From Vicinamibacteria bacterium (GTDB lineage Bacteria; Acidobacteriota; Vicinamibacteria; Marinacidobacterales; Marinacidobacteraceae): 64,000 nucleotides of DNA. Below the pieces are notes generated by a model. That model did no database searches. It was not told the origin of the DNA and was given only the letters and a program-made list of their open reading frames with translations. The translations under genes and the position numbers were made by a program. This document shows positions 1-64,000 of the stretch, piece by piece. The stretch covers positions 1,280,001-1,344,000 of the forward strand of contig OY729431.1 of NCBI GenBank assembly GCA_963422395.1. Reading direction: 5' to 3'. Positions within the stretch are counted from its first letter, which is position 1, and each line of letters begins with the position of its first letter.

Positions 1-1835
1 TGCTCTTGCAGCGGAACTGGATCGGGCGCTCCGAGGGCGCCGAGATCCGCTTTTCCATCCCGGAGCTGGGGGGGGACGGCGAAGTTCCGGTGTTCACCAC
101 CCGGGTGGACACGATCTACGGTGCTACCGCGCTGGTGCTCGCTCCGGAACACCCTGCTGCCCGCGCGCTCGCGGACCGGGCTCCCGAGGTGGCGGAGTTC
201 ATCGCCGTAGCCATGTCGAAGCGGGCCGCAGCGGCTCATCCCGGCGGCGAGGAGACCGGGAAGACCGGGGTGGACACCGGGTTCCGCGCAGTGAACCCCT
301 TTTCCGGAGAGGAGATTCCGGTCTTCGTCGGTGACTATGTGCTCATGGAGTACGGAACCGGCGCGGTGATGGCCGTCCCGGCCCATGACGAACGCGACTA
401 CGAGTTCGCGAAGAAGTACGGGATCCCCATCCGCCCGGTGGTGATCCCGAATGATCCTGAAGCGCCCCGCGCTGAAGACGGCGCATTCTTCGAATACGGC
501 ACGGTGGTGGACTCCGGCTCTTTCAGCGGCCTTCCCACCGAAGAGGCGAAGACGGCGATGGCCGAGCACGCGCGCGCCGGCGGTTACGGCGGGCCGAAGA
601 TCGCCTGGAGGTTCCGCGACTGGGGGATCTCCCGGCAGCGGTATTGGGGCACTCCGATCCCGATGATCCACTGCCGGGATTGCGGCGAGGTTCCGGTCCC
701 CGAAAAGGATCTGCCGGTGGAACTGCCGCGTGATGTCGAGATCACCGGCATGGGAGGGTCGGCGCTCTCGAAGATCGACTCCTGGAACCGGGTGGACTGC
801 CCTGTCTGCGGCGCCGGCGCCCGACGCGAGACGGACACCATGGACACCTTCGTGGATTCGTCCTGGTACTTCTATCGATACCTCGATCCGAGAAACGATC
901 AAGCTCCTTTCGACGCCGAAAAAGCGCGCGCCTGGTTTCCCATCGATCTCTATATCGGAGGGGTGGAGCACGCCATCCTGCACCTGATCTATTGCCGTTT
1001 CTGGACCAGGGTGATGCGAGACCTCGGCCTCGTTGCGAACGACGAACCGGTGGTCCGACAGCTGAGCCAGGGAATGGTCATCAAGGACGGCGCCAAGATG
1101 TCCAAGAGCAAAGGGAATGTCGTGGACCCCGACGCCGTGGTGGAGCGCCACGGAGCCGATGCGATCCGGCTCTATGTGCTGTTCGAATCGCCTCCCGAAA
1201 AGGAGATGGACTGGACCGACGCACGGCTCGCGGGTCCGGCGCGTTACCTCGGACGGCTCGATCGGAGGATCCCGGGGGACGCAGAATGGCTGGCGGGCAC
1301 TTCCTTGCCGACCGGCGAGGAGATTTTCGAGCCGTCCGATCTCGCACTCCGCCGTAAGACCCACCAGACGATCCGGCGGGTGACTCGCGACCTCGAACAG
1401 CGGCTCCACCCGAACACCGCGATCGCCGCCATCATGGAGCTCACCAGCGCGGTTTCCCAGCGCCTGCCCGAGGCGGCGTCCGACGGCTCCAGGCGGGCGG
1501 TCCGTGAGGCGGTGGAGGCGGTGGTGTCCCTGCTGAACCCGATGGCGCCGCATCTGACGGAAGAACTCTGGGAGCGGCTCGGGGGCGAAAGGATGCTGGT
1601 GCACTCGCCCTGGCCGGAGTACGACGAGGAAATCGCCCGCGACGAGCAAGTGCTCGTGGTGCTGCAAGTGAACGGGAAGCTGCGGGGCCGGCTCGAAGCG
1701 CCCGCCGGCCTCGAAGGTGGTGCGCTCGTTGCGCTTGCGCGCGCGAATCCGGGAATCCGCCGCCACCTCGAAGGCCTCACCGTGCGGCGGGTGGTCACGG
1801 TGCCCGACCGGTTGGTCAACTTCGTGGCGAGCTGA
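1..1835 (+). CDS. leuS: Leucine--tRNA ligase, 5'-truncated by the window edge
   Basis: QRNWIGRSEG, editing-domain FTTRVDT and GTGAVMAVPAHD, DWGISRQRYWGTPIP, KMSKS signature, C-terminal VQVNGKLRG. Confidence 0.97.
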   Translation, partial: LLQRNWIGRSEGAEIRFSIPELGGDGEVPVFTTRVDTIYGATALVLAPEHPAARALADRAPEVAEFIAVAMSKRAAAAHPGGEETGKTGVDTGFRAVNPFSGEEIPVFVGDYVLMEYGTGAVMAVPAHDERDYEFAKKYGIPIRPVVIPNDPEAPRAEDGAFFEYGTVVDSGSFSGLPTEEAKTAMAEHARAGGYGGPKIAWRFRDWGISRQRYWGTPIPMIHCRDCGEVPVPEKDLPVELPRDVEITGMGGSALSKIDSWNRVDCPVCGAGARRETDTMDTFVDSSWYFYRYLDPRNDQAPFDAEKARAWFPIDLYIGGVEHAILHLIYCRFWTRVMRDLGLVANDEPVVRQLSQGMVIKDGAKMSKSKGNVVDPDAVVERHGADAIRLYVLFESPPEKEMDWTDARLAGPARYLGRLDRRIPGDAEWLAGTSLPTGEEIFEPSDLALRRKTHQTIRRVTRDLEQRLHPNTAIAAIMELTSAVSQRLPEAASDGSRRAVREAVEAVVSLLNPMAPHLTEELWERLGGERMLVHSPWPEYDEEIARDEQVLVVLQVNGKLRGRLEAPAGLEGGALVALARANPGIRRHLEGLTVRRVVTVPDRLVNFVAS

Positions 1836-1837
1836 CC

Positions 1838-2413
1838 GTGGCGTCCGCTGCGAAATCTCCTCTCCGCGTCACCGGGCTCCTCGTCGGGTCGGCCGGGCCC
1901 ATCCTCGGGCTCCTCGGTCTTGCCGCCGCCCCGCTTGCCGCCGGCTGCGGTTACCGGTTGGCCGGCCTGGGGGCCGGCCTTCCCGATCACATCGAGGTGA
2001 TCGCGATCCTCCCTTTCGAGAACGAGAGTGCCTTTCCCGAGGTCGAGGAGGGCATGACCGAGCAGATCATCGAGGGCTTCAACGAAAGGGGCCGCTACAC
2101 GGTGCAAGAGCACGAGGAAGGGGCCCACGCGGTGATGCGCGGAACGGTGCTGAGCGTGGATTTTTCGCCGGCGCAGCTCGACCCCGCTACTGGCGCGGCT
2201 TCCTCCTACCTCATCATCGTGAGAGCCACCGTGGTGTTCACCGATGTCGTGAACGAGGTCCCGATCTTCGAATCCGACGAGTTCACCCTGCGGGACGAGT
2301 TCTCGATCAGCGAGAATCCGGACGCCGCCTTCGACCGCGAAGGGCTGGCGTTCACCCGCATCGCGAGCGCGTTCGCCGATTCTCTGCTGGTCGCCATTCT
2401 CGAAGGTTTTTAG
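1838..2413 (+). CDS. lptE: LPS-assembly lipoprotein LptE-like
   Basis: Lipobox-like AAGC followed by GY-R-L; conserved leuS-lptE-holA order. Confidence 0.8.
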   Translation: MASAAKSPLRVTGLLVGSAGPILGLLGLAAAPLAAGCGYRLAGLGAGLPDHIEVIAILPFENESAFPEVEEGMTEQIIEGFNERGRYTVQEHEEGAHAVMRGTVLSVDFSPAQLDPATGAASSYLIIVRATVVFTDVVNEVPIFESDEFTLRDEFSISENPDAAFDREGLAFTRIASAFADSLLVAILEGF

Positions 2414-2559
2414 CAGCCTGTGGACGAAATGCCGAGTAGCGAGGGGCTCCCGGTCGAGGACAACCGACCGGGAATCCCTCGCTCTCCGGCGTGTTCGCGG
2501 GGCCTTCCTGGCCCCGCAGGGACCGCTCTCAGGACTCGCGCCACTGCATCCACAGGCTG
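2414..2559. mobile_element. Family A MITE (146 bp), non-autonomous relative of the IS1182-like element
   Basis: Terminal inverted repeats CAGCCTGTGGA...TCCACAGGCTG; flanks TTAG (containing the lptE stop) and TTGA; long internal hairpin. Confidence 0.85.
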
Positions 2560-2645
2560 TTGAGGGGAGCAATGCAGGGCACTCGTTCGGCGGGCAGTCG
2601 AGCACTGCGGGGAGTTGCGGAGGGCGTTCCTCCCCCGGGTGGCTG

Positions 2646-3755: not shown

Positions 3756-3789
3756 GAACGCTCGACGCCGCACTGCCGACCCATCGTTC

Positions 3790-4012: not shown

Positions 4013-4014
4013 GC

Positions 4015-4956
4015 TCAGCGTTCGAGCAGCGCCGTGATCAGCCAAGCAGCAATCGGCTTGCCGAAGGCACCGGCGGCCAACAGCAGAGCGCCCGCTGCTC
4101 CCCAGGCGAGCCGGCGGGTCCATGAACTCCGCTCTCGCAGCTCAGCGAGAGAGACCGCCAGGCCACCGATGGCGTCCAGAATGTTCTGGAAATTCTTCGC
4201 TGTCTCTTTCCGGTCGGCCTCACGCGCCGCCGCTACTTCCCTTCGGTCGGCTTCGCGCGCCGCCGCCGACTGCTGGAACTTCTCTTCTGCCTCCTTCCGG
4301 TCGGCTTCGCGCGCCGCCGCTGCCTCCTTCCGGTCGGCTTCGCGCGCCGCCGCTGCCTCCTTCCGGTCGGCCTCGCGCGCCGCCGCTGCTTCCTTCCGGT
4401 CGGCCTCGCGCACCGCCGCTGCTTCCTTCCGGTCGGCTTCGAGAACCGCCACTAACTGTTGGAACTTCTCTTCTGCTTGCTTTCGGTCGGCCTCGCGCAC
4501 CGCTGCTGCTTCCTTCCGGTCGGCCTCGCGCGCCGCCGCTGCTTGCTTTCGGTCGGCCTCGCGCACCGCTGCTGCTTCCTTTCGGTTGGCTTCGCGCGCC
4601 GCCGCTGCTTCCTTCCGGTCGGCTTGCGCCTCCTGTCGGATCTCCCGGATCTCCCCGCGGATCCCGGCCAGCTCCCGCAGCACTGGGGACTGCTCCCCTT
4701 CGAGCCCTTCGGGAACTGCCGGCTCCGGAGGTCGGTCGGCCGCCGCTTCGGCTCCGCTCATCGGCACCCTCTCCGCAGCATGGGAGCGAGTGTAGGGGCG
4801 GGTCGCCGGCTCCGCAACGCTCGCAACACCGCCGCTGGTCAGGCTGCTCGGAACCTCGCTTGCAGCGGTCGCCGTTGCGGTCAGACGGAGTTTCTTGGTT
4901 CGGGCTTTCTTCTTTCGGGGCGGCTTTTCGGGGGTCTTCTTCGGATATGGGGGCAT
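4015..4956 (-). CDS. Membrane-anchored coiled-coil protein with 11-aa tandem repeats (EADRKEAAAAR)
   Basis: AGGAGA RBS before ATG 4956; low-complexity N-terminus, ~12 hendecad repeats, C-terminal hydrophobic segment (LAWGAAGALLLAAG...IAAWLITALL). Confidence 0.75.
   Translation of the reverse strand: MPPYPKKTPEKPPRKKKARTKKLRLTATATAASEVPSSLTSGGVASVAEPATRPYTRSHAAERVPMSGAEAAADRPPEPAVPEGLEGEQSPVLRELAGIRGEIREIRQEAQADRKEAAAAREANRKEAAAVREADRKQAAAAREADRKEAAAVREADRKQAEEKFQQLVAVLEADRKEAAAVREADRKEAAAAREADRKEAAAAREADRKEAAAAREADRKEAEEKFQQSAAAREADRREVAAAREADRKETAKNFQNILDAIGGLAVSLAELRERSSWTRRLAWGAAGALLLAAGAFGKPIAAWLITALLER
4200..4625 (-). repeat. 33-bp coding tandem repeat (~12 copies, two with 21-bp extensions)
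   Basis: Reiterated cttccggtcggc(c/t)tcgcgc(g/a)ccgccgctg on the + strand. Confidence 0.92.
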
Positions 4957-5050
4957 GGGGTTTTCTCCTGTTTTTCGGACGGGGGCGATATGACGCACAC
5001 GCCCCACTCTCATAGACGGAATTCGGATCGATTTCTTCCCACGCCAGTTT

Positions 5051-5723
5051 CGAGCGGTCCGGGAGCGGGGCGTTCCACTCCTCCCACGAGGGTCCGAAAC
5101 GCGACCCGACTTCACGCCTTCCTGAGAGAGCGGCGACCCCCGACCGTGGCCCGAAAAACACTTGTTGCGCCCGAGGCTGTGGCTCGGGCGCGTCGGAGCG
5201 GGGGAAAGTGTGAAAGGGGGTTCACCCCCGTTCACAGGATGGTGGCTTCGAATCGGACTCGCTGCCGCCCCGGTTCAGCTTGGATGCGAATCGGGTGTGG
5301 GGAACTCGTTGTGCGGCAGGAGTGCGATTCGCGGCGCGGAGCGCCGGGCGGTTCGGGAGCGGGGCGTTCCACTCTTCCCACGAAGGTCCGAAACGCGACC
5401 CGACTTCACGCCTTCCTGAGAGAGCCGCGACCCCCGACCGTGGCCCGAAAAACACTTGTTGCGCCCGAGGCTGTGGCTCGGGCGCGTCGGAGCGGGGGAA
5501 AGTGTGAAAGGGGGTTCACCCCCGTTCACAGGATGGTGGCTTCGAATCGGACTCGCTGCCGCCCCGGTTCAGCTTGGACGCGACGGGGTGTGGGGAACTC
5601 GTTGTGCGGCAGGAGTGCGATTCGCGGCGCGGAGCGCCGGGCGGTTCGGGAGCGGGGCGTTCCACTCCTCCCACGAGGGTCCGAAACGCGACCCGACTTC
5701 ACGCCCCGCTCCCGGACCGCTCG
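5051..5723 (+). repeat. Family B array: ~2.3 tandem 294-bp units bounded by a perfect 22-bp inverted repeat
   Basis: cgagcggtccgggagcggggcg (5051-5072) is the reverse complement of 5702-5723; near-identical units offset by 294 bp. Confidence 0.92.
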
Positions 5724-5726
5724 GGG

Positions 5727-8173
5727 TCAGAGGAGGGGTTGCGGTTCTCGGGGGTTTTCGCGGGCCAGCCGCTCGATCTCCGGCCAGGAACGCACCAGCG
5801 CGTCGTAGGCGAACGCCTCCCCCGCTCGACCCCTTCGCTCCGCCGCCGCGTGCAGCCCATACAACAGCTCCCGCACCCCCTCCACCCGTCCCGTCAGCCG
5901 GCCCGCTGCCACCTCCCCCTGCTCCCGCGCCCGCACCAGCTCGTGCGCCACCCGCCACCCCGTCAACCGCCCCTCTCCCTCCGGCGCCCACGCCTCCCCC
6001 CGCTCCCGACTCTCCCCCAGCTCCTCCGGGCGCAACAGCCGCACCCGCCCCCCTCCCGAACGCACGATCCCCGCCTCCACCAGTCCCGAAACACTGGTGT
6101 TCCTCGCTTTCGACAGCGTCTCCGCGTCGTACTCCCCCGTGAGCTCCGAAAGCGTCTCGCCCAGCACCTCGTTGATCTGCGCGAGCGCCTCTCCCACCGC
6201 CACCGGCCTCCCCCCGCTTCCAGCACCCGCGGGGTCCGGGTGAAGATCGCCATCCCCGGCCCGATCGCCGCCTGCGCCAGGTCCACCGGGGCGATGTGCG
6301 CCCGCCGCAGCGGCGCGAGCGCCTCCGGCAGTTCCCGCCGCAGCGCCGCCACGAACTGCCGCCGGGTCGCCGGAGCGGTCCCGGGAGGCCGCCGTCGGCA
6401 GGCCAGCACCACCGAAGACGCCAGCGCGTTCGTCCCCATCCCCACCATCCGGTTCGAGAGCTCGGTGCGCAGCGGCCAGGTGCCGGTGATCGAAAAGCCG
6501 GCGCCGATCACCGCCTCCAGGAAGGTCTCCCAGCCGGTGCGCACCGTCCCTCCCTCCCTCTTCGTCTCCGCCTGCTTGAAGGCGTAGTAGAGGGTGACCG
6601 GGAAGGCTGGGTGCGCCTGTTCCGCGAGGCGTTCCAGGGCGCGCCGCATCCCGCCCAGGAAGAAGGCCTCCGCCCCCGCTCTCCCCCCGTGCCGGTGCGG
6701 TGCGGCCACCAGCTCCTCGTCCTTCGGGGTCGCCAGGGTGGCGAACAGCCCCGGGAACACCGGGCGCAGCGTCCGCCGCAGCCAGACATAGAAGAAGTCC
6801 GACAGGTCGGCGTAGGCCACATTGTCGTAGTAGGGCGGGTCCGTCGAAACGATCCGCTCGCCGCCGCCGGACTGCCCTCCTACCGCGTCCGCCTGCTCTG
6901 CACTCCCGACACCGAAAACCGGGCATCCGCTCCAGTGCCTTGGCCATGTTCTCGAGGCTCACCGCGTAATCGCCGGCTGCTCCGCCGAAGACATTGTTCT
7001 CCGCGTAGTCCCACATCATCGGGATCGCCTGGCGCCCGAAGAGATTGCGAACTTGTGTCTTCGTGACTTCCCAGCGACAGAGGGAGTTGCAGATGTCGGT
7101 CAGGCGGCTCACAGCCAATCCCAGATAGACAGAGACGGCGTCGGCGTAGGCGCGGGGGCCGCTTCCGCCCTCGCGCAGCGGGAGCCCGTCCTCGGCCGCC
7201 CCGGCGGCGAGGGCGTTTTCGCGCACCCGCTCCCGGGCCTCGGCCACCAGGTCCGAAAAGGTGGTCAGCGCCGCCAGCTGCCGCTCCGTGAACAGATCGC
7301 CCCACTCCTTCATGCCATAAGGAACACAGGTCCCACCAGTGAGTCTCGGCGGCACCTCCCCATGCGGTTTCCAGGCCGGGCGGGCCCGCAGCGCTGCCGC
7401 TTCGTGCTCCGGGGTCGGCGGCAGGTACACCCGCTCCCGGTCGCCCGCCGCCACCACCGCCATGAGGCGGGCCCCCAGCCGCCCCGCCTTCCCCTCGGCC
7501 CGAATGTGCTCATAGGGGATCGGCACCCCCGACACCAGACAGCGGAACCCCCGCCGCTTCCCCTCTGAGGTCCCCCGCTTCACCGTTTCCGGCTCGGGCG
7601 GGCTCCCGGTCCGCACCTCGAAGCGGTATTCGCGCCCGGAAACCTCCGGTTCGACCTAGGCCTGTTTCCCCTCCTTCTTCGAGGAGAGGAGGAAGGAGGA
7701 GACGAGGGGGACTTCGACTTCGGCGAAGGCGGGGTTGGGGCTTTTCACCGTACGCGCCCAGAGCCAGGCGATCACCGGCAGCTCCCGACCGCCCTCCGTT
7801 CCCCTCTCCTTTCGCGGTTGCTCCGGCGTAGCGGGCGAGGTCGGGGCGCCCCTGCAGGAGTTCGGGGGAGATGCGGGCTTCGGGGTAGAGGTGTCCGAGG
7901 CGGCGCCGGGCCTCATCGCGCATCCAGGCTCCGTAGAAGCGGACATCGGCGGCGAGGCCGGCGGCGCCGGGGAAGGCACGCGGGGTCGTCGACCAGCTGG
8001 GCGAAGAGGACGGCGCGGGCGGCGGCGAGCGGGCGGCGCGCCCACCAGAGGTGCAGGGTGCTGGGGTGTCCGTGGCGGATGGACTTCTCCCGCGCCGCCG
8101 CTTCGTTGATGGCGTCGAGGGGCAGGGCCACCTCGATCAACTTCCGCCGCCCGCCCGGCGGTCCATCCTTCAC
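5727..8173 (-). pseudogene. Fragmented DUF1156-type adenine DNA methyltransferase
   Basis: [13 protein letters not shown]...[48 protein letters not shown] motif, [12 protein letters not shown]; split over several frames, in-frame TAG at 7656-7658, apparent internal deletion near 7930-7980. Confidence 0.85.
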
Positions 8174-8269
8174 CGCTCGCCCGACTCCCCCACCGGGGGG
8201 CAAGCCTATCGAACCCCGAGCCGGCGAAAACCCTCTTCCGGTGGGCGCAGCCCTCAGACTACCTGGACC

Positions 8270-8434
8270 GGGAGATGAGCGGCGACTCCCGTCCGCGACC
8301 CGAAAGAATATCGGTTACGCCCGAGGCTATGGCTCGGGTGCGGCGCGCCGGGCGGTTCGGGGGCGGGGCGCCCCGCTCACCTTACAAGGAGCGAGAGGCG
8401 ACCCGACTTCACGCCCCGTCCCCGGACCGCTCGG
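8270..8434 (+). repeat. Family B repeat, degenerate, overlapping the rpsT 3' end
   Basis: cgcccgaggctatggctcggg hairpin, cggttcgggggcggggcg, and terminal cgacccgacttcacgccccgtcccggaccgctcgg. Confidence 0.82.
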
Positions 8435-8690
8435 ACCGAAGAACGAGGCGGGAGAGGCGGGATTTGCTGCGGGCGGCGGCGTTCGGGTGGAGGATCCGCC
8501 GGCCCGCCATGCGGTCGAGCAGGGCCAGCGTTTTCGGGAGCTGCTCCCGACTCGCATCGAGATCGTCCGCCGCCACCGCGGCGCGAAGCTGTTTCACGGC
8601 GGTGCGGAGACTGCTCCGGTGATGCCGGTTGCGTAAGCGGCGTTCCTGATTCTGTCGAACGCGCTTCTTCGCGGATTTGCTATGGGCCAT
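8409..8690 (-). CDS. rpsT: 30S ribosomal protein S20
   Basis: MAHSKSAKKRVRQNQERRLRNR...ILHPNAAARSKSRL; GGAGAG RBS. Confidence 0.96.
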   Translation of the reverse strand: MAHSKSAKKRVRQNQERRLRNRHHRSSLRTAVKQLRAAVAADDLDASREQLPKTLALLDRMAGRRILHPNAAARSKSRLSRLVLRSERSGDGA

Positions 8691-8784
8691 CGTCTCTCCG
8701 AATCCGGTCGTTCCGGAAACCATGCTGCGGTGCGCTCGGGAACCCCGCTCACGAGCAAGGCTGCCGGGACAGCGAGAATCCATG

Positions 8785-8793
8785 AGTGTACCA
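8785..8793 (-). promoter_or_regulatory. Putative extended -10 promoter of rpsT
   Basis: TGgTACACT on the - strand ~95 nt upstream of the rpsT ATG. Confidence 0.45.
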
Positions 8794-8820
8794 CCGACCG
8801 CCTCATCGATCGATCTCGGT

Positions 8821-8844
8821 GCTCGCGACTTCATCCACAGGCTG
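8821..8844. mobile_element. Solo family A end
   Basis: gctcgcgacttcatccacaggctg, next to the DUF4097 stop codon; partner end not found. Confidence 0.6.
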
Positions 8845-8845
8845 C

Positions 8846-9817
8846 TCAGCGCTGATGCTTCGCCGGGGTTCCGGCTTCGACCTCCTCGGCGAGGTGGATG
8901 AGCCCACTGAAGGTGTTCACCGAAATCTGCGGCCCTCCCTCGCCGTGGCGGCATTCGAGGCTTCGGGGACCCGTGTGGCTTTCGACTTCGAGATCGTTCC
9001 GGATCGCTCCGGTGTAAGTGGTCGCGTCCACCTCGAAGCCGGGCAGGGATCCGAGCCCGAGAACCACCGGGCCGGAATGGGTCTGGAACTCGTACCACCC
9101 CTCGGAGTGGAAATCGCCGTCGAACTGGATGCCGGCGGTCAGGGTCTTGAACTCGCTCCGGTGGGAAACGACATCGCGCAGCCGCAGTTCGCCGCTCACG
9201 GTTTCCGCCCGCAGATCGTGGCAATCGATTCCGCTGACGGTGAGTGCGCCGCTGATGCTGCGCAGCAAGACGGTCCCTTCGGAGACGGAGACATCGGTGA
9301 TCGTGATGGGCGCCGAGAAGGTTCGGACTTCGATAGAAGCACCGTCCGGGAGCCACACTTCGAGGTCCACCGAGACCGGCGGGATGCGCCGGGGCGCCCG
9401 GATATCGGTGATCGGGGTTTCGCCCTCGCGGCTGCCGGAACTGTTCCGCCGCGGGCGCGGACCGATATGGATGCGGCGGCCGCGCCTCCGCAGATCCAGA
9501 TCGACCCGCTCGAAGATCTGCGCCGCTTCGGCCGCTGGCAGGTCGGCGGTGAGCCGCTTCACCCCCACGATCCGAAGGGTCCGATCCTCACCGGGATCGG
9601 TGCCGTGAACTTCTACATTCCCGGCGAAGTTCATCACGGTGATCATGGTCTCGGCCTCGATCTCGATCGCGTGCTCGACCCGCTCGGTGGCTGGTTGACC
9701 GAAGGTTCGGCCCCCTCCGAGAAGACCCAGGATCACTGCCGGCGCCATGACGCGCGCCGGAGACAGTCGCGGGGAAAACGCGGCGTGCCGTCTCGCCGGT
9801 CTCGATTCGTCCGTCAT
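8846..9817 (-). CDS. DUF4097 family beta-strand repeat protein (putative adhesin-like, exported)
   Basis: Repeated (S/T)xSG-x-hydrophobic units (SISGAL, TVSGEL, THSGPV, TFSGLI); N-terminal hydrophobic stretch. Confidence 0.75.
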   Translation of the reverse strand: MTDESRPARRHAAFSPRLSPARVMAPAVILGLLGGGRTFGQPATERVEHAIEIEAETMITVMNFAGNVEVHGTDPGEDRTLRIVGVKRLTADLPAAEAAQIFERVDLDLRRRGRRIHIGPRPRRNSSGSREGETPITDIRAPRRIPPVSVDLEVWLPDGASIEVRTFSAPITITDVSVSEGTVLLRSISGALTVSGIDCHDLRAETVSGELRLRDVVSHRSEFKTLTAGIQFDGDFHSEGWYEFQTHSGPVVLGLGSLPGFEVDATTYTGAIRNDLEVESHTGPRSLECRHGEGGPQISVNTFSGLIHLAEEVEAGTPAKHQR

Positions 9818-9890
9818 CGGAACACGCTCCTCTGCCGCCGGAACCCGGTTGCCGGGGGGTCTTCCGGAACGGATGCGAATGCGGGCGGGG

Positions 9891-10346
9891 TCATTCGGTC
9901 TCTGGTCGTTCCCGACCTGAGATCGCGTCGATCCGGTCGCGGGCGGTGGCGCTGTTGCCCCGCTCGATATCCCGCATCAACATCAGGGTGTTGTGGAAAA
10001 GGTCCAGTTTGCGGCGCAGGCTTTCGAGCAGCGTTTCCTGCGCCTCTTCGTCTTCCGGCGCCTCGGTGGCCCGCCGCCGGCTCTCCTCGATGGCGGCGTC
10101 GAGTGCCCGTCGTTCGGGTTCCATGGCTGCGTGGACACCGCCGAGGCCGTCGTCCGCATCGGCCGAGCGCAATGCGGCTTCGAGGTCGCCGATAGCTTCT
10201 CGGTAGAGGGCTTCGGCCGCCTCGACCGGGTGCGCTGCCTCCGCTGGCGGCGGCACCGGCGTTTCGTCTTCCGCCCACGGCCGCAGGATCACCAAGAGGG
10301 CGCCTCCCGCTGCGATGGCAGGCCAAAGCCACCGTACGGGCCGCAT
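9891..10346 (-). CDS. Hypothetical membrane-anchored helical protein resembling the C-terminal part of acidobacterial anti-sigma factors
   Basis: TM WLWPAIAAGGALLVIL, then YREAIGDLE...LDAAIEESRR...P...LLESLRRKLDL; upstream of DUF4097. Confidence 0.55.
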   Translation of the reverse strand: MRPVRWLWPAIAAGGALLVILRPWAEDETPVPPPAEAAHPVEAAEALYREAIGDLEAALRSADADDGLGGVHAAMEPERRALDAAIEESRRRATEAPEDEEAQETLLESLRRKLDLFHNTLMLMRDIERGNSATARDRIDAISGRERPETE

Positions 10347-10360
10347 GACGCGCTGGAAAC

Positions 10361-12067
10361 CTAACGCGCCGCGAGCAACCAGAGCAACCCGGCGGCAACC
10401 GCCGCGGCGAAGAACACGGTCCAGCCGATGGTGCTGCGGAAGGCGAAGTCGTCCTGGCTCTTGACGGTGGAGCGCCCGGAAGCGATCCGGAGAGCCGCGG
10501 CTTCGAGGCGGACAACCAGTCCGGCTCGAAGGAACCGAGCCAGCGGTCCGAGGGAAGAGAGCACCGAGCCGCATGCGGCGCCGAGGTTCCTGAGCGGTTT
10601 CCGATAGATCCAGTCGAAGTCGAGGGTGACGGCGGGTGCAGGCGTCATTTTCCGTCGGACCAGGGCGAAGAGAACCGCAGTACCCACCAGCAACTGACAA
10701 GTCGAAGAGAGATGATCCAGGGTGTACGGCTCGTACTGCACGGCGAAGGGCAGACGGACATAGAGGAGGTCGGGCAGAATCCCGTAGAGCAGGCAGAGAC
10801 CGCCCGCGATTCCCATCGCGGCGAGCAGATTCGAGGGAAGGGGTCGGACCTCGACGCTGCGGCGTGCCTCGAAGAAGGCGAACCAGGGGAGTTTGAGCCC
10901 GACGGAAAGGAAGGTTCCCACCGCGGCGAGAGTGAGCAGCAGCTCGGCCAGCAGGAAATGCTGCTCTCCTGCGGCGCTGACGATCATGGACTTGCTGATG
11001 AAACCGTTGAACAACGGCCAGCCAGAGATCGAGAGCGCCCCCACCACATACATTCCGACAGCGAAACGCATTCGGGAAGCGATCCCGCCGAGGTCCGAGA
11101 GCCGGCGCATCCCGGTCGCTTCGATGGCCGCGCCCGCCCCCATGAAGAGCAGCGCCTTGTAGAGGATGTGCGAATAGGCGTGCGCGGCGGCGCCGTTCAG
11201 CGCGAGCTGGGTGCCGACCCCCACCGCCGTCACCATGTAGCCGACCTGGCTCACGATGTGGTAGGCGAGCAGTCGGCGGATGTCGTTCTCGATGATGGCG
11301 AACACGACTCCGTAAAGCGCCATGGCGACTCCGAGCGGAACGAGGATCTCGACACCCGGAAACAGTCGGAGCAGCGCGTACACCGCAGTCTTGGTCGTGA
11401 ACGCGGAAAGGAACACCGCTCCGGAGGTCGAGGCTTCGGGATAGGAATCGGTCAGCCAGGCATGGAGCGGCGGAACCGCCGCGTTCAGGGCGACTGCGGT
11501 CAGAACGAACCAGAAGGGCGGCAGGCCGCCTGGTAGGGGGCCGAGGCCGGGGTCGCCTCCTGCTGCGAGGTGGAATGCGACTCCGAGGAACAGGAGGGCG
11601 CCTCCGACCGCATGTACGAGCAGGTAGCGCATCCCCGCGCGTCGGGCGCGGCCGGTCCTTCCCATCCAGAGGAGCGCGAGGGACGCGAGCGCCATCAGCT
11701 CCCAGAAGATGAAGAAGGTGATCCAGTCCCCCGCCAGCACTGTGGAAATCGCGGACCCGGCATAGAGCAGGGCTCCGGCGGTTTCGCCGGCTCCCATCCG
11801 GTGGACTCCGTAGAGGAGACCCAGCAGGGTCACGATCGTGAAGACGAGGGCGAACAGGAGGCTCAGTTCGTCGGCCCGGAACCAGGTGAGCTGGAACCCG
11901 GCGACGGTGGCCTCACGAGTTCCCGGAGAAAGTCGCAGCAAGCCGAGCAAGGCCGGGATGGCGAAGGCGATCCCCACTCCGGCGGCCGGGACTCGGCGGC
12001 CGGCGGCGGCGGCGGCGAGTGCTCCGGCGAAGAGCCACATCCCGGGATGCAGCAAGGCGCTGTTCAA
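10361..12067 (-). CDS. mrpD: Na+/H+ antiporter subunit D-like (proton-conducting membrane transporter)
   Basis: FFIFWELM, PLHAWLTDSYPEA, FTTKTAVY, RRLLAYHIVSQVGYM, ALLFMGAG; TTG start overlaps the upstream stop. Confidence 0.88.
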   Translation of the reverse strand: MNSALLHPGMWLFAGALAAAAAGRRVPAAGVGIAFAIPALLGLLRLSPGTREATVAGFQLTWFRADELSLLFALVFTIVTLLGLLYGVHRMGAGETAGALLYAGSAISTVLAGDWITFFIFWELMALASLALLWMGRTGRARRAGMRYLLVHAVGGALLFLGVAFHLAAGGDPGLGPLPGGLPPFWFVLTAVALNAAVPPLHAWLTDSYPEASTSGAVFLSAFTTKTAVYALLRLFPGVEILVPLGVAMALYGVVFAIIENDIRRLLAYHIVSQVGYMVTAVGVGTQLALNGAAAHAYSHILYKALLFMGAGAAIEATGMRRLSDLGGIASRMRFAVGMYVVGALSISGWPLFNGFISKSMIVSAAGEQHFLLAELLLTLAAVGTFLSVGLKLPWFAFFEARRSVEVRPLPSNLLAAMGIAGGLCLLYGILPDLLYVRLPFAVQYEPYTLDHLSSTCQLLVGTAVLFALVRRKMTPAPAVTLDFDWIYRKPLRNLGAACGSVLSSLGPLARFLRAGLVVRLEAAALRIASGRSTVKSQDDFAFRSTIGWTVFFAAAVAAGLLWLLAAR

Positions 12068-20961: not shown

Positions 20962-21887
20962 GGTCAGATCCGGAGCGGCCCGAGGATCCGCTGGTGACGC
21001 GGTTTCTGACCTACTTGCGCCTGGAGCGGGGCCTTTCGGAAAACACCATCGACGCGTACCGCAGTGATCTTCGGAAACTCTCGGTCTTCGCGGGGGAGAA
21101 GTCGCTTCTAGAGCTCGATACCCGTGATCTTCAGGAGTTCCTGACCGATCTGCATCGCCGCGGGCTCGCCTTCCGGTCCATGCAGCGCATCACCTCCACG
21201 ATGCGCGGGGCCTTCGGGTTCTTCGTCGCTACCGGTGTTCTGGAACGGGATCCCACGGAGGCCATCACTTCGGTGCGGGCGCCTTTGGGCTTGCCCCGTT
21301 ATCTGTCTGCTGCCGAAGTCGAGCGGCTGCTGGACGTCCCCGACGATTCCCCCCGCGGGCTTCGGAACCGCGCGATGCTCGAAATGCTCTATGCGACGGG
21401 GCTCCGCGTGTCCGAACTGGTGCGCCTCCGGCTGAAGGATGTGGCACCGGCTCGCGAAGGTTCTCCCGGGTATCTCACCGTGATCGGCAAAGGCGACAAG
21501 GCGCGCATCGTGCCCTTCGGAGAAACCGCCGCCATCCGGCTTGCGGTCTGGCTGCGCGAAGGCCGTCCGCTGGTTCTGGCCGGAAAAGTGGATCGTTCCT
21601 GGCTCTTCGTCACCGGTCGAGGAATGGCCATGAGCCGCCTGCGTTTCTGGCAGATCGTGCGGGCCTGTGGGGAAGAGGCGGGGATCCGGCGCCGCTTCTC
21701 GCCCCATGTGCTTCGCCATTCCTTCGCCACCCATCTGCTCGAGCGCGGGGCCGACCTGCGGAGCCTGCAACAGATGCTCGGCCACGCTTCGGTCTCGACT
21801 ACCCAGATCTATACCCATGTGACCGAGGAGCGCCTTCGCCAGATCTACGATCTGCACCACCCGCGCGCGAAGCGGGGCGGGGGTTGA
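20958..21887 (+). CDS. xerD: Site-specific tyrosine recombinase XerD
   Basis: LERGLSENTIDAYRSDL, YATGLRVSEL, SPHVLRHSFATHLL, LGH...TTQIYTHV. Confidence 0.92.
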   Translation: MRSDPERPEDPLVTRFLTYLRLERGLSENTIDAYRSDLRKLSVFAGEKSLLELDTRDLQEFLTDLHRRGLAFRSMQRITSTMRGAFGFFVATGVLERDPTEAITSVRAPLGLPRYLSAAEVERLLDVPDDSPRGLRNRAMLEMLYATGLRVSELVRLRLKDVAPAREGSPGYLTVIGKGDKARIVPFGETAAIRLAVWLREGRPLVLAGKVDRSWLFVTGRGMAMSRLRFWQIVRACGEEAGIRRRFSPHVLRHSFATHLLERGADLRSLQQMLGHASVSTTQIYTHVTEERLRQIYDLHHPRAKRGGG

Positions 21888-33392: not shown

Positions 33393-34738
33393 CTAACAGC
33401 CCGTGGACAAACTGCTGTAATCGGTGAGGATCAGCGGCCCCGGAGGGGGTGCCGTGATCGGCGCAGTACGGCGTGCGGGCGCGGTTCTGCGCGGGAAAAC
33501 CGCCCGACAGGGCGCTATCCAGGCCCAGGCGGGCGTTTCCCGGCTCCGGTAGGCGAAAATGAGAGCGAAAAGCGCGGCGCCGACCGCGGCCGCGCGCCCC
33601 TGCAGTCGTCGCGGCTTGCCGATTCCGCACCGGTGGCGCATCAGCAGCCCGAGGTCGAAGCCGGCTGCCTGGATCAACAGCCGCTTCCCGATGTTCCCCC
33701 GTCCGCGCAAATACAGCCGCCGCATCCCCCCGGTCTCGTAACCGTGCGCAAACGAGCGCTCCACCAACTCGCCCCGCCGGCGCAGCAGGCGCTTCCCGTG
33801 CTCACCACGAACGCGCCGCCGATTCGCAACCACCGCCCGGCGCTCCTCTTCCTTCCCCCGCCAGCTCCAAAGGCCCCGCTTCGGCTCCGATACATACGAA
33901 CGCACCCCCTCCCGCCGCAGACGCAACCGCGTCGCATTGCTGTGATACCCCTTGTCGCACACCAGCTCTCGCGGACCAGCCGGTTCCCCGACCGCCGACG
34001 CCAGCGCCCCGCTCTCCCGGTCCACCGCGTGCTCCACCTCGTGCGCCATCCGGGTCCGGCCGTCCTTCGTCCTCGCCACCCGCGCCTCCGGGTCCTGGGG
34101 ATGCTCCCATTCCTTGTTCGTCGTCGTCTTCGCGCGCGCCCGGTCGAACCTCCGCAGCTCCTCCCGACTCGGCGTCTCGATCCCCGATTCCTCCGCCAGA
34201 CGGCGCAGGAACTCCTGGTACCCCTCCCCGGTATCCCGCCGGACGATCCCTCGCATCGAGGCGTTCGCCAGCAGCGTCGTTCCATCGACTCCTACCCTCT
34301 GACCCCGTAGCAATCCCGCCTCTTCCAGCCGCCGCAGAACCCAAACGAATACCTCCGCGTGTGCCTCCGTCGCAATCCGGCGCCGCGTCTTCGACAGCGT
34401 CGAATGCTCCGGACACCGATCCGTCAGCAAAAGCCCCAGAAAGCGCCGCAGGCCCGAAGAATCCGCCAGCCGCCATGCGATCTGACGCTCCGAGTCGCAC
34501 CCCTCGAAATACCCCACCAGCAACAGACGAAAATAATGCCCCGGCGCCAAACTCGGCCGCCCCATCACCGGCGCATGGAACCTCGCGCACACACGCGCTC
34601 GACATGCTCGTCGAATCCGGACTCTTCCAGAATCCGGTTCAGCCGCTCGTAGAACGGATCCCCCGCGCTTCGAGGAAGACTCGCCCTCGAAGTCCAGGAT
34701 GTCCGGCGCTGCTCAACCCGACGCAATCCCATAGCCAT
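33393..34738 (-). pseudogene. IS1182-like DDE transposase with a frameshift near 34590
   Basis: Frame 1 MAMG...PFYERLNRILEESGFDEHVE; frame 2 CARFHAPVMGRPSLAPGHYFRLLLVGYFEG (DUF772-like), VDGT, DKGY, VERSF; extra GT in a GTGTGT run. Confidence 0.8.
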
Positions 34739-35928: not shown

Positions 35929-37073
35929 CGTTCGTCTCCTTGTGGTCCATCGGTGTTTCGGTGGACGATGACCTCACTCCAGACCCTCTCGAAGTTGCCG
36001 CCGAGAATCGCGCGGACTCCGTCTTCGTCAAAGCCGGCTTCGGCGAGGGCTTCGCCGATCGCCTCGAAATTCGCTTCCTCGCCGAAGCCTTCGCTGTAAG
36101 CCGACATGCCGCGCAGATCACTCCCGATTCCGACGCTCGATCCACCGCCGAGGTTCGTCACTCGTCGAACATGGCGGGCGAGATCCGCCACCGTGGGGAC
36201 GAGCCCCGCGTTCGGCCAGATCCCGATCACGCCGCCTGCTGCCGCGATCTCCCGGATCTCCGGATCTCGGAGGTGCCGGTCGTGCTCTTCCAGGGCGAAG
36301 GCTCCGGTGTGGCTGAACACCACCGGACTGCGGGACAGTTCGAGGGTGTCCCGGATCGTCTCCGGGTTCGCATGGGCGAGGTCGATCACGATCCCGAGGC
36401 GATTGCACTCGCGCACCACCTCGCGTCCGAATGCGGTGAGCCCGCCGGGGGTATAAGGCCAGGTCTGGATGTGGCCGAGTCCGTTCGGGCGAAAATGGAC
36501 GAGCTGCAGCAGGGCGAGTCCTCTCCGATGCAGTTCATGGAGCCGCTCGATCCGGCCTTCGAGTGAATCGGCGCCCTCGAGTCCGGGCAAGATGGCGAGG
36601 ACCCCTCGGGCTCGCGCAGCTCGCGCTTCCTCCGGAGTGCGGGCGAAGACCGCACGCGCTTCGGACACCGTTCGTTCGAGCCGCTCGAAGCGGTCGAGGG
36701 TGTAGGCCCAGGGTTCGCCGGGCTCGGGGCGGCGATTTCCGCTTTCGATCCGCGTCCCGTCGCGCTGTTCGTACCCGCCCCGGTACGGCGTGTCGGTGCT
36801 GATCGTGGCGACCACCGCGTCCATGCCGCGGTTCAGGTAGCGAGCGATCTCTTCGTCGCTGATCCGAGGCACGTCGGCACGGTGGAAGCGGGAGGGGTGG
36901 GCGTGGATGTCCACCCGAAGCGGCTCCTCCTGCTGGAGGAGTCGGGCGCCGCCGGATACCGCGGCAGAAGCCGCAGCATCGCCGAGAAGGCAGGCGGAAA
37001 AGAGGGCGCCGCAGAGCCCGGCGCAAAGCAGGCGCCACTCCCGCCGGAAGCGCGCAGGGATCTCCCCGGTCAC
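35925..37073 (-). CDS. Membrane dipeptidase (M19)
   Basis: DIHAH, LEGAD, GLTAFGREVV...NRLGIVIDLAH, SHTG, GIGSD. Confidence 0.87.
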   Translation of the reverse strand: MTGEIPARFRREWRLLCAGLCGALFSACLLGDAAASAAVSGGARLLQQEEPLRVDIHAHPSRFHRADVPRISDEEIARYLNRGMDAVVATISTDTPYRGGYEQRDGTRIESGNRRPEPGEPWAYTLDRFERLERTVSEARAVFARTPEEARAARARGVLAILPGLEGADSLEGRIERLHELHRRGLALLQLVHFRPNGLGHIQTWPYTPGGLTAFGREVVRECNRLGIVIDLAHANPETIRDTLELSRSPVVFSHTGAFALEEHDRHLRDPEIREIAAAGGVIGIWPNAGLVPTVADLARHVRRVTNLGGGSSVGIGSDLRGMSAYSEGFGEEANFEAIGEALAEAGFDEDGVRAILGGNFERVWSEVIVHRNTDGPQGDER

Positions 37074-47449: not shown

Positions 47450-47622
47450 GGTCCCGCGCCGGTGTCGAGCATCCGGGGGGGGCCGCCGAGGCCGGGAGAT
47501 GTTTTGCGTTTCGGGGCAGTCGAGATCATCGGTTGGCCCGGCATTCTGCCCTGAAACGGGGGGCGGTACCGCAGCGTTCCGGGCGATGCCTCGGTGCGGG
47601 GGGCGGTTCGGCGGCTGCCGCA

Positions 47623-48384
47623 TCAGCCGGCTCCAGCAGGTCTGTCGGCAGACCGGGACGCCGCGGCGAGCTCTTTCCGCAGGGCGGCGGCGGCGGCCGC
47701 CACCGCTTCGGGGGTGTCGCCATCGAGGGTGATTCGGGTGCCGTTCGCTCCTGGGTAGGAGCCGATCTGCACTTCCGGGTGCGCGGCGACGAGCCGGTCG
47801 AGCAGCGGGATGAGTTCCTCCTCGGGACGGGGAATCTGTTCTTCGTCGGTGCTGTACGCCTCTCCGGCGGGGAGGCATTCGGAGACCACCTGGAGTTTTC
47901 GTTCGAAGACCGGCGGCAGGCCGGGCAGGATCCAGACATTCCGCATCACCACCACCGGCCAGCTGCCGCCGCTCCCTTCGCGCAGTTCCGCGCCCTCGGG
48001 TACCCGAGCAAGGTCGCGGTGGGCCTCTTCCACCCCGCGTTCTCGGAGCTTTGCCAGGAAATGGGGGTGATGGACCACTCGGGTCTCGAAAGCGCGGGCC
48101 ACGCCCTCCATCGTCACATCGTCGTGGGTAGCGCCGACGCCGCCGGAAGTGAACACCAGGTCGTACTCCTCGGCGAGGGTGGATAGCTCGCCCCCGATGG
48201 CCTCCGGCTCGTCCGGAATCGTCACCACCCGCTGTAGCGCCACCCCCTTTTCCCGAAGAACCCGGGCGAGGAGCCGGGTGTTCGTGTCGGCGACTTTCCC
48301 GGCGAGGATTTCGTTCCCGATGACCACGAAGGCAGCCGTGCGGCGGCGGAATTCCGGGCGTTCCGCCGCCGGCGGGCGGTTCAG
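47623..48384 (-). CDS. Molybdopterin-binding/CinA N-terminal-like protein (start uncertain)
   Basis: VIGNEILAGKVADTN, TSGGVGATHDDVT, LPGLP, IGSYP. Confidence 0.82.
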   Translation of the reverse strand: MNRPPAAERPEFRRRTAAFVVIGNEILAGKVADTNTRLLARVLREKGVALQRVVTIPDEPEAIGGELSTLAEEYDLVFTSGGVGATHDDVTMEGVARAFETRVVHHPHFLAKLRERGVEEAHRDLARVPEGAELREGSGGSWPVVVMRNVWILPGLPPVFERKLQVVSECLPAGEAYSTDEEQIPRPEEELIPLLDRLVAAHPEVQIGSYPGANGTRITLDGDTPEAVAAAAAALRKELAAASRSADRPAGAG

Positions 48385-54068: not shown

Positions 54069-55961
54069 ATGGGGCGGCTGGACGCGAGAGCGGTTTCCGG
54101 CGAGCAGCTCCGCCGCTTCGAGAAGCGGCTCTTCTCCGACCTGAGGAAGCTGAACACCCTGATCGAGGCGGGGAGGATCGAGGAGGACGTCTATCGCGTC
54201 GGCGTGGAGCAGGAGATGTTCCTGGTCGGGCCGGCGCACCGCCCGGCTCCGATGGCGATGGAAGTGCTCGAGGAGCTGAACGATCCCTCGTTCACCACTG
54301 AGGTCGCCCGCTTCAATCTCGAGGCGAACCTGGAGCCGATGCCGCTTTGCGGCGGCCTCCTGTCTCGGACCGAGGAGCGTCTCGAGGAGACCATGACCCG
54401 AGCCTCGGAGGCCGCTCGCCGGGTGGGAGTGGATGTCTGTCTGACGGGCATTCTGCCCACTCTCCGGCTTTCGGATCTGACCCTCGAGAACATGACGCCG
54501 CTTTCCCGTTATCGGGTGCTCGACGACGCTCTCCGCCGGCTGCGCGGCGGCAAGCCGTATCACCTCCGCCTCTCCGGCGTGGACGAAATCCACGCGACCC
54601 ACGACAATGTGATGCTCGAAAGCTGCAACGCGAGCTTCCAGATCCACCTGCAGGTCGGGGCCCGCGAGTTCAGCAGGCTCTACAACCTCGCGCAGCTCGT
54701 CAGTGCTCCGATCCTCGCGTGCTCTTCGAATTCACCCCTGCTGTTCGGGCGGAGGCTCTGGCGCGAGACGCGGATCGGCCTCTTCCAGCAAAGTCTGGAC
54801 ACCCGCGAAGCGCGCCCGGATGTCCGCCAGCGCACCGCCCGCGGCGCCTTCGGCCAGGACTGGGTGGACGGCGGGGTGATCGAGATTCTGCAGGAGAACA
54901 TCGCTCGGCATCCGGTGCTGCTCGACGCCGGAGACGACGAGGACCCGGACCGCGATCCGCCGCGCCTTACTGCCCTGACGCTCCACAACGGCACCGTCTG
55001 GCGCTGGAATCGGCCGTGTTACGGCGTGACCGAGGGCGAACCGCACCTCCGGATCGAAAGTCGCTACCTGCCGTGCGGCCCCACGATTCCCGACGAAGTG
55101 GCGAACATGGCCCTCTGGCTGGGGCTGATGAGCGCCCTGTCCGGGGAGGGCGTCGAACCGCGCGAAGCGTTGCCCTTCGCCGATGCGGCGGAAAATTTCC
55201 TCGCGGCCAGCCGCCTCGGACTGAAGGCGGAGCTGACCTGGCTCGACGGGAAGCATTGGCGGGTGCGCGACCTCCTCCTCGAGGAGCTGCTGCCCCGGGT
55301 GCGCGATGGTCTTCTTCGGAAAAAAGTGGACGGCGCCGATGTGGACCACTATGTCGGCATCGTCGAAGAGCGGGTGAAGACGGGCCGCTCGGGCGCGCGT
55401 TGGATGCTCGACGGCTTCGACTCGCTCCGGAATCAGGCGTCGCCGTCGGAGCGGCTGAGCGCGATCACCGGCGCCGCGCGGCGCCAGCAGGGGGCCGGGA
55501 TCCCGGTCTCTCGCTGGGAGCTGCCGGTGCTCGCCGACTCCGGCGGCTGGAGGCACCACTACCTCCGGGTGGAACAGTTCATGACCCAGGACATCCGCAC
55601 CGTCCACCCGGAAGAGTCGGTCCGCCGGGTGGCGATCCTGATGGACTGGGGTCGGATTCGCCATGTCCCGGTGGAAGAGGACGGAAAGCTGGTCGGCCTC
55701 GTTTCCTACCGCACGATCATCAAGCTGGTGGCCGAGAGCGGCCTGGAGGAAGACGAATTCCTGCCGGTGCGGCAGGTGATGCGGCAGGATCCGATCACCA
55801 TTCCGCCTTCCACGCTGTCGGTGGATGCGATCCGCATCATGAACGAGAAGGGGATCGGTTCGCTTCCGGTGGTGGAAGCGGGGCGGCTCGTGGGGATCGT
55901 GACCGAGCACGACTTCACCCTCATCGCGCGGGGCCTGCTCGAGGAGAATCTGGCCGGGTAG
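54069..55961 (+). CDS. Glutamate--cysteine ligase family (GCS2-like) protein fused to a CBS pair
   Basis: GVEQEMFLV, EVARFNLE, SFQIHLQV, NSPLL, HLRIESR; C-terminal tandem CBS; TACAAT at 54053-54058. Confidence 0.82.
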   Translation: MGRLDARAVSGEQLRRFEKRLFSDLRKLNTLIEAGRIEEDVYRVGVEQEMFLVGPAHRPAPMAMEVLEELNDPSFTTEVARFNLEANLEPMPLCGGLLSRTEERLEETMTRASEAARRVGVDVCLTGILPTLRLSDLTLENMTPLSRYRVLDDALRRLRGGKPYHLRLSGVDEIHATHDNVMLESCNASFQIHLQVGAREFSRLYNLAQLVSAPILACSSNSPLLFGRRLWRETRIGLFQQSLDTREARPDVRQRTARGAFGQDWVDGGVIEILQENIARHPVLLDAGDDEDPDRDPPRLTALTLHNGTVWRWNRPCYGVTEGEPHLRIESRYLPCGPTIPDEVANMALWLGLMSALSGEGVEPREALPFADAAENFLAASRLGLKAELTWLDGKHWRVRDLLLEELLPRVRDGLLRKKVDGADVDHYVGIVEERVKTGRSGARWMLDGFDSLRNQASPSERLSAITGAARRQQGAGIPVSRWELPVLADSGGWRHHYLRVEQFMTQDIRTVHPEESVRRVAILMDWGRIRHVPVEEDGKLVGLVSYRTIIKLVAESGLEEDEFLPVRQVMRQDPITIPPSTLSVDAIRIMNEKGIGSLPVVEAGRLVGIVTEHDFTLIARGLLEENLAG

Positions 55962-62451: not shown

Positions 62452-62515
62452 GGGCGCAGAGGATAGAGCAGTCCGCCGCGCCCGAAAGGGTCTCGCAAGG
62501 CGGCCGCAGAGCAGT

Positions 62516-62641
62516 ATCCACAGGCTGTTGTCAGTTTGTGGATGAAATGGCGCGAGCCCCGAGAACGGTCCGGTTCTCCCGGTGGGGGCTTCGCCGTGTT
62601 GCATCGCTGGCCTTTGGCCGTGTGACTTCGTCCGCAGGCTG
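62516..62641. mobile_element. Family A: solo end (to 62527) plus a 110-bp internally deleted MITE (62532-62641)
   Basis: atccacaggctg-ttgt-cagtttgtggatgaaatggcgcgagcccc...tgtgacttcgtccgcaggctg-CTAG; matches both ends of 18079-18267. Confidence 0.8.
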
Positions 62642-62681
62642 CTAGTCTGCGGGATACCACTGCGGGGTTCGAGGCCTTCTC

Positions 62682-63923
62682 ATGGCGCGTAGCATTCGTT
62701 TTCGCGATTTCGTGCTCATCGTTTCCGTCGCTGGGTTCCTGGTCGCGGCGGCGGTGGCGATCCACACCGCCCGACCGGGAGTCGAGGGGCGCTCGGCGCC
62801 GCAGGTGCGGGCGAGCGGGGAGTGCGCGAACTGCCACCGGAACGAGACCGGCGCCATCGTCGCGCAGTTCGAGACCAGCGCGCACGCTGCCGCCGAGGTC
62901 ACCTGTCTCGATTGCCATCGGGTCCACCCGCGCCAGACGGCGGTCGAGCACTACGGGTTCCAGCTCTCGGAAGCCGCCACCGCACTTGCGTGCCAGGGGT
63001 GTCACGCCGACGAAGTACGCCAGTTCGAGAGGAGCCGCCACGCGCTGCCGGCCTACGCCGCGGTGATGGGGACGGAGGGGATTCCGGCCTCGTTCCCGGA
63101 AGATCGAGTCGCCCGCGCAGAGGAGCTCCATCCGGGAGCGGTGATGCGTCCAGCGAACGCACTCGCCCGGCTGGAGGGACCGGCCACGATCCGTTCCGGG
63201 TGCCTCGGCTGTCATGACATCGGAAGACCCAACGCAGACGGCTCCATCGGAACCTGCACCGCCTGCCACAGCCGGCATGCGACCTCCATCTCGATCGCTC
63301 GCTCTCCGGCGACCTGCGGGCAGTGTCACATGGGGCCGGACCACGCCCAGAAGGAGATCTACGGCGAGTCGAAACACGGCGTCCTGTTCGAAGCGCTGCG
63401 GCACACGATGGATCTCGACGCCGACCCCCAACGGCTCACCGCTTTCGACATGCCGGTGCCGACCTGCGCCACCTGTCACCTGAGCGGCCTTTCCGGCGCG
63501 AAGGTCACCCACGACACCACCGAGCGGCTCTCCTGGTGGCTCTTCGCACCGGTGTCGGAGAAGCGCCCGCACTACCATCGGGCGCAGGCAGAAATGCAGG
63601 GAATCTGTCTGAAGTGCCACGCCGCGAGCCATGTCGAGCAGTACTACGCCGAGGCCGAGCGGGTCGTCGAAGCCACGAACGCGCGGGTTTCGGCACTCGT
63701 GGATCGGATGGCCGAGGTCCAGGCATCCGGCCTGCTCACCGACGCTCCCTTCGACGAAACTCTCGACTTTCTCTTCTTCGACGCTTGGCACTACGCCGGG
63801 CGGACGGTGAAGCACGGCGCCTTCATGGACGGGGCCGACTTCGTGCAGTGGCACGGAACCTACGATCTGGTACATCGGCTCAGCGAGATCGAGGAACGGG
63901 TGGCGGCGCTCGTCGAGGAGTGA
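62682..63923 (+). CDS. Octaheme cytochrome c of the hydroxylamine oxidoreductase (HAO) fold
   Basis: Eight CxxCH (CANCH, CLDCH, CQGCH, CLGCH, CTACH, CGQCH, CATCH, CLKCH); CGQCHMGPDH...IYGESKHG and PTCATCH motifs; N-terminal TM. Confidence 0.87.
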   Translation: MARSIRFRDFVLIVSVAGFLVAAAVAIHTARPGVEGRSAPQVRASGECANCHRNETGAIVAQFETSAHAAAEVTCLDCHRVHPRQTAVEHYGFQLSEAATALACQGCHADEVRQFERSRHALPAYAAVMGTEGIPASFPEDRVARAEELHPGAVMRPANALARLEGPATIRSGCLGCHDIGRPNADGSIGTCTACHSRHATSISIARSPATCGQCHMGPDHAQKEIYGESKHGVLFEALRHTMDLDADPQRLTAFDMPVPTCATCHLSGLSGAKVTHDTTERLSWWLFAPVSEKRPHYHRAQAEMQGICLKCHAASHVEQYYAEAERVVEATNARVSALVDRMAEVQASGLLTDAPFDETLDFLFFDAWHYAGRTVKHGAFMDGADFVQWHGTYDLVHRLSEIEERVAALVEE

Positions 63924-64000
63924 CGACCGACTCGTCCACTTTCGGCCGGGGTTTTCGGACCCGGCGCGGCGACTCTCTCGCCGGGGGAGTGCTGCGCGCT

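Follow-up and report, generated by a model that had tools for sequence, protein, structure and literature searches.

The DNA examined here is a 64,000-nucleotide stretch of a Vicinamibacteria bacterium (the window; G000:C1:1280001-1344000, G000 being the source genome, assembled as one contig of 2.91 Mb with a completeness rating of 93.8%). It is almost devoid of the palindrome ACGT. The depletion is real, strong and of a known kind: it works like restriction-site avoidance, and the cognate restriction-modification (R-M) genes were not found. The relevant features, in window coordinates, are as follows.

1..64000, no strand: ACGT-poor region, with 3 sites versus ~94 expected
21334..21337, no strand: surviving ACGT, at the Asp-Val junction GAC-GTC in the + strand open reading frame (ORF) 20994-21887
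36871..36874, no strand: surviving ACGT, in the - strand ORF 35925-37073, beginning at codon position 2
54187..54190, no strand: surviving ACGT, at an Asp-Val junction in the + strand ORF 54069-55961
5730..8230, - strand: remnant of a broken DUF1156-type adenine methyltransferase (MTase), in several pieces (tblastn against three full-length paralogs; individual pieces are 30-93% identical)
33393..34605, - strand: insertion sequence (IS), with partial copies elsewhere in G000 (blastn)

The N-terminus encoded by ORF 20994-21887 presumably resembles that of an XerD-type recombinase. An Rfam scan of the window gave no matches.

ACGT depletion in the window and the genome

The original prediction, read by eye, placed ACGT only at 21334, 36871 and 54187; the exact count agrees, with no site elsewhere in the window. 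Expectations were calculated with a trinucleotide Markov model, and O/E denotes the observed/expected ratio. The expected count of ~94 (188.2 over both strands) corresponds to an O/E of 0.032 (z -14.8), and 100 Markov simulations of the window yielded a mean of 92.6 sites and a minimum of 70. Base composition alone gives ~191, in line with the earlier rough estimate of 150-200, the Markov figure being lower. ACGT was the lowest of the 256 tetramers in the window and again genome-wide, where 561 sites were found (O/E 0.136), with low values in each 50 kb bin. The claimed depletion therefore withstood Markov correction in the window and the genome, and was patchy in relatives. The IS and the DUF1156 remnant had been said to comply; each does contain zero sites, but ~2.5 were expected in each, and this compliance is hence uninformative. 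Surviving sites cluster in defence/mobile islands and in the region around a tRNA-Ile/Ala pair near 299 kb, which is probably an rRNA operon (local O/E 0.45-0.67). CTAG is also scarce in G000 (O/E 0.28) and is low throughout the family.

Codon context of the replacement

Asp, Asn, Tyr and His codons (NAY) before Val codons (GTN) had been predicted to end almost always in T. The genes of the window bore this out, with 3 C-ending and 100 T-ending codons, as opposed to C/T endings of 234/20 before GA, 167/46 before GC and 176/25 before GG. Across the 1731 called genes of G000, on which the genome-wide codon analysis was based, C-ending codons accounted for 4-9% of NAY before GTN and for 71-97% before GA, GC and GG. 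Codons ending in T were likewise more frequent when GC, C or T followed.

Replacement by ATGT/ACAT, as originally proposed, was seen in the overall ratios (O/E 1.48 in the window and 1.59 in the genome), but the excess lay mainly in one reading frame. With frame-wise O/E conditioned on amino-acid pairs and codon usage, ATGT reached 3.58 in frame 1 only, its excess being limited to Asp/Asn/Tyr/His-Val junctions, where ATGT is the only silent way out; ACAT reached 1.55 in frame 0 (116 versus 75 expected). As NAT is the sole silent escape from NAC-GTN, that frame cannot distinguish between mutation and selection. Thr codons before T can: their third positions were A.032, C.774, G.019 and T.174 (n=3591), close to the prediction for proportional redistribution of the lost ACG (A.014-.019, C.80-.81, T.15-.17) and not to that for conversion of ACG to ACA (A.12-.22), provided that ACA is not rapidly shifted to ACC by GC bias. 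ACGT was depleted in all three frames (O/E 0.07, 0.08 and 0.26), and in the 364 kb outside called genes, which include missed genes, its O/E was 0.24, with a value of 0.99 for ATGT/ACAT. Selection against the ACGT word dominates, because the Thr-before-T spectrum matches proportional redistribution and ATGT/ACAT shows no excess outside genes; any transition component is small at most.

These data bear directly on the possibility that persistent 5-methylcytosine (m5C) at ACGT deaminates to T, eroding sites to ATGT/ACAT by mutation alone. The genome-wide ATGT/ACAT excess and the 1.55-fold rise of ACA-T over codon-usage expectation are in its favor, as is Helicobacter pylori, whose ACGT sites change preferentially to ATGT/ACAT and whose M.Hpy99XI produces m5C (PMC10423294). 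However, ACA accounts for 3.2% of the Thr codons before T rather than the predicted 12-22%, the corresponding values in the depleted relatives G003 and G008 are 1.4% and 1.1%, the 3.58-fold excess of ATGT is confined to the frame with one silent option, and the sole C5-cytosine MTase (C5-MTase) of G000 is Vsr-linked and differs from the type described below. Deamination as the main driver is largely refuted already, and we consider it very improbable that mutation alone emptied the genome of ACGT. Which base was methylated cannot be read from the frame test, because G125, a more distant genome carrying a C5 enzyme, has the same replacement spectrum (ACA-T.023).

Asp, Asn, Tyr or His followed by Val is itself rare at the amino-acid level genome-wide in G000 (0.61-0.73); the purge of ACGT may also have shaped protein sequence.

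Distribution among relatives

GACGTC was low in 5 of 41 genomes. In the rpoBC region, ACGT O/E was 0.11 in G000, 0.02 in G003, 0.19 in G008 and 0.37/0.12 on two contigs of G006, with ranges of 0.84-1.45 for another 11 genomes of the family and 1.08-1.25 for four outgroups. Larger samples (observed/expected, both strands) gave 38/726 for G003, 100/554 for G008 and 36/169 for G006, with 1162/948 for G018. The purge is common to G000, G003, G006 and G008, which represent three genera, and was absent from the other sampled relatives. Placed on a 20-row RpoC tree, the depleted genomes, four in number, call for two changes, but they may share a single origin. The fifth genome, G005, was rejected as ACGT-depleted: its GACGTC is low, but its ACGT O/E is 0.97. 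G005 (L055) purges GGCGCC, CAGCTG, GTCGAC and GACGTC, and G003 (L053) and G008 (L054) additionally purge AGCT (O/E 0.0-0.2). The relatives form a mosaic of purged palindromes and have 2-33 PF01555 matches each.

At the phylum level, GACGTG was compared with its reversed control in 400 Acidobacteriota genomes (one of which, G083, counted in the denominator only); by a tally made by eye, the ratio was <0.15 in 23, spread over 12 families. G095 and G125 were the only GACGTG-poor members of genus g85, their congeners being normal. Depletion of ACGT itself was confirmed in two of the 23, G082 (12/563 observed/expected, both strands) and G125 (2/598).

Avoidance of GTMKAC as an internal control

G000 also purges GTMKAC (O/E 0.22 for GTCGAC and 0.18 for GTAGAC/GTCTAC), the site of the AccI-type system (PF09545). 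RE_AccI is present in 4 of 28 family genomes, adjoined by an NPPY methyltransferase in both loci examined, and these four carriers have GTMKAC counts of 0/27, 0/20.7, 0/29.2 and 2/20.7 (observed/expected). In G000, G008, G004 and G006, GTMKAC is purged without an AccI match; in the remaining 12 of 20 sampled genomes it is near expectation or mildly low. The AccI-type system leaves the same sort of footprint in this family, and G000 bears that footprint without the gene, but with its different site and adenine methyltransferase (NPPY motif) it cannot account for the loss of ACGT. The family displays both avoidance with the gene and traces without it, as described by Rusinov et al. (PMC4687349).

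The replacement spectrum reveals selection and not its agent, and no enzyme was found; the agent might therefore be a transposon with this target, an enzyme that damages or modifies DNA at specific sites, or a host mechanism that senses words containing CpG. Nevertheless, CpG is generally over-represented (rho 1.18), relatives purge differing palindromes in a mosaic, and one of these, GTMKAC, tracks a named R-M family. An agent of this kind is extremely improbable.

A predicted ACGT system in other families

G082 and G125, which belong to different families, share a neighboring C5-MTase (51% identity) and protein of 260-280 amino acids (41%), at loci G082:C4 (L400) and G125:C1 (L401). The latter protein has no Pfam match and falls into 112 representatives at 50% clustering; its look-alikes in the Atlas are named restriction endonucleases. 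As to a possible relationship of L400/L401 to Hpy99XI, the Atlas offers only a Campylobacterota-rich look-alike cluster. A viral contig (L452) encoding a 46% identical MTase homolog is also ACGT-poor (4/55.8), with no endonuclease seen beside the MTase. From these three sequence contexts, we infer that the L400/L401 C5-MTase and putative endonuclease form an ACGT-specific system.

Within the phylum, the pair turned up solely outside the family of G000. A 38-sequence endonuclease profile found nothing in G000, G003, G006, G008 or G168, or in the six frames of G000, while recovering both source loci; an MTase profile retrieved only the Vsr-linked enzyme in G000. The PF00145 loci of G003, G006 and G008 (loci only, not whole genomes) scored far under the three C5-MTase members. 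G095, from the genus of G125 and 100% complete, is equally GACGTG-poor without the L400/L401 pair, and neither G095 nor G241 gave a match to a single endonuclease protein used as the query.

Search for the enzyme in G000

The causative system had been predicted to be encoded elsewhere in the genome, but no ACGT-type system was found in the single contig of G000. The proposed search for C5-MTases yielded one, on a Vsr-linked island at tRNA-Val, alongside 8 PF01555 and 3 PF02086 matches. Candidates were assessed by their distribution and by the palindromes avoided within the R-M genes themselves (self-avoidance); the self-avoidance tests did not extend to two orphan MTases (1690093 and 610726) or to the large enzymes of the Type I, IIG, III and DUF1156 classes. 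Two of the loci concerned, with a third considered further below, are as follows.

G000:C1:2563026-2563481 (L010), - strand: remnant, with two deletions, of a CfrBI-type (CCWWGG) methyltransferase of the L120 type, in synteny with an intact G006 copy
G000:C1:2017358-2018991 (L337:1477-3110), + strand: seemingly intact Dam-class MTase and HTH-HNH endonuclease (PADLOC REase_II), the MTase frame having ATC at the expected start
G000:C1:6585-7274 (L458), - strand: solitary endonuclease-like ORF of 230 amino acids, with an Atlas score of 0.96 to clusters, one of them named putative restriction endonuclease

Seven candidates were rejected. The Vsr-linked C5-MTase (676649-678028) is just 27-33% identical to the L400/L401 type, and C5 loci of similar score in undepleted genomes, its possible orthologs, are not ACGT-poor; by reasoning, Vsr-type repair would drive T to C, opposite to the frame-1 change. 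For the orphan MTase at 1385678, strong homologs occur in 21 of the 27 relatives, most of which are undepleted, and its own genes contain 62 ACGT versus 59 expected. The SPPY MTase L120 occurs in exactly the four depleted genomes of 44, but it has a CfrBI-like partner, and the palindrome that 17 gene pairs avoid is CCWWGG (2 versus 23.1), not ACGT (65 versus 76.6). CCWWGG is the recognition site of CfrBI; the self-avoidance method retrieved it for this family. The alpha-class MTase L186 occurs in undepleted G010, G013, G014 and G015 as well. The short DPPY MTase and endonuclease L164/L189 had ACGT counts of 191 versus 254 in 80 metagenome homologs and 1069 versus 1155 in 33 long loci. The Dam-class MTase and HNH pair is present in all four depleted genomes plus G009, of 55, but six phylum carriers are not GACGTG-poor and 10 outside copies had 34 ACGT versus 41.7. 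The seventh, an MTase/endonuclease at 840146-841440, is broken in G000 and intact in G008, and five plasmid copies had 51 ACGT versus 40.7. As the SPPY and Dam-class candidates illustrate, perfect co-occurrence inside one family misleads. PADLOC, run on 25 of 89 atypical G000 ORFs, found the already rejected HNH enzyme as the sole Type II endonuclease, and three of four viral scans and one phage search gave no matches.

The outside copies of the Dam-class MTase and HNH pair avoid GTKMAC (1 versus 10.7), a lead to its site. Other PADLOC defence matches in this defence-rich genome were ZorA, DndB-like, HEC-01A and PDC-M38 (G000:C1:1352891-1354645, 2457767-2459029, 566792-568021 and 46364-47962, respectively). 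Decayed R-M pairs lie near 497 kb, 840 kb and 2563 kb.

An ACGT-specific system might still be resident yet unrecognized, consisting, for example, of ORF 6585-7274 (-) and a distant orphan methyltransferase, or carried on an unassembled plasmid. The deep footprint in four genomes of three genera, the Atlas score of this ORF and the incomplete assembly are compatible with such a system. Conversely, the ORF has no Pfam-type name and no PADLOC match, no homolog was found in plasmids, viral contigs or fetched loci, no methyltransferase was noticed among the ORFs of 4500-10500 around it, and each of the seven MTase candidates was ruled out by its distribution or by self-avoidance. We regard a resident system as unlikely. 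We would also give little credence to the proposal that a resident agent of unrecognized type, such as this ORF with an unlinked or non-canonical protective modification, upholds the purge in three genera, with no known R-M pair responsible.

Discussion

The purge of ACGT is probably the trace of a lost orthodox Type II R-M system that was long resident in the lineage. What was observed is the footprint itself, the spectrum of replacements, the patchiness among relatives and an unsuccessful search for the enzyme. Rarity genome-wide after Markov correction, patchiness, weaker depletion in recently acquired islands (local O/E 0.5-0.7 here) and loss by any silent change are marks of Type II site avoidance, and all were found here; a cognate endonuclease and methyltransferase, also expected in such a genome, were not found. 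We infer the former presence of an ACGT system, with self-restriction as the selective force. The lineage would have carried a Type II system cutting ACGT for a long time, and each chromosomal site would have posed a small risk of self-cleavage, so that selection would have favored any silent change that removed one: NAC-GTN would have become NAT-GTN, ACG-T either ACC-T or ACT-T, and in A-CGT the Arg codon would have been exchanged for another. Most likely, the system was then lost recently or became patchy within the species, its footprint staying behind. Of the original proposal, a long-resident ACGT R-M system stands as the best explanation, but m5C deamination does not as the main driver.

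Several points weigh against this explanation. None of the four depleted genomes of the family yielded an ACGT-type system, the MTase survey of G003, G006 and G008 covering PF00145, PF01555 and PF02086; either four losses are needed or an unrecognized isoschizomer exists. The footprint remains deep (5% C at NAC-GT), which requires a very recent loss. The modest rise in ACA-T means that some transition bias or deamination contributes to the loss of ACGT, and the Thr test carries the presupposition about GC bias given above.

Traces of lost R-M systems and avoidance of restriction sites by Type II hosts are on record (Rusinov et al. 2015, PMC4687349). As in that study, a 4-bp palindrome is rare genome-wide and patchy among relatives, and the system is missing from the genome; ACGT does not feature in its main text, whereas here the depletion reaches an extreme and four depleted genomes all failed to yield the cognate system. 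In H. pylori, depletion of ACGT has been linked to M.Hpy99XI (A-m5C-GT), present in only ~65% of strains; motif density does not track the enzyme, and that paper credits deamination and lineage-specific selection (PMC10423294). The word is the same and silent NAC-GT to NAT-GT change dominates in both cases, but in G000 the rise of ACAT is slight and an MTase of that kind was not found. Sponge symbionts are enriched in R-M systems, in a report the available part of which does not mention site avoidance (PMC6506613). A search that left most subscription journals outside its reach found no publication on ACGT depletion in Acidobacteriota or this lineage.

Site avoidance is textbook knowledge, and the finding itself is ordinary. 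The codon-frame test, however, tells selection from deamination using one genome, and self-avoidance in R-M genes can assign sites to unnamed systems, as for CCWWGG and the CfrBI-like family. The Pfam-less endonuclease family of L400/L401 gains a predicted and testable site, ACGT.

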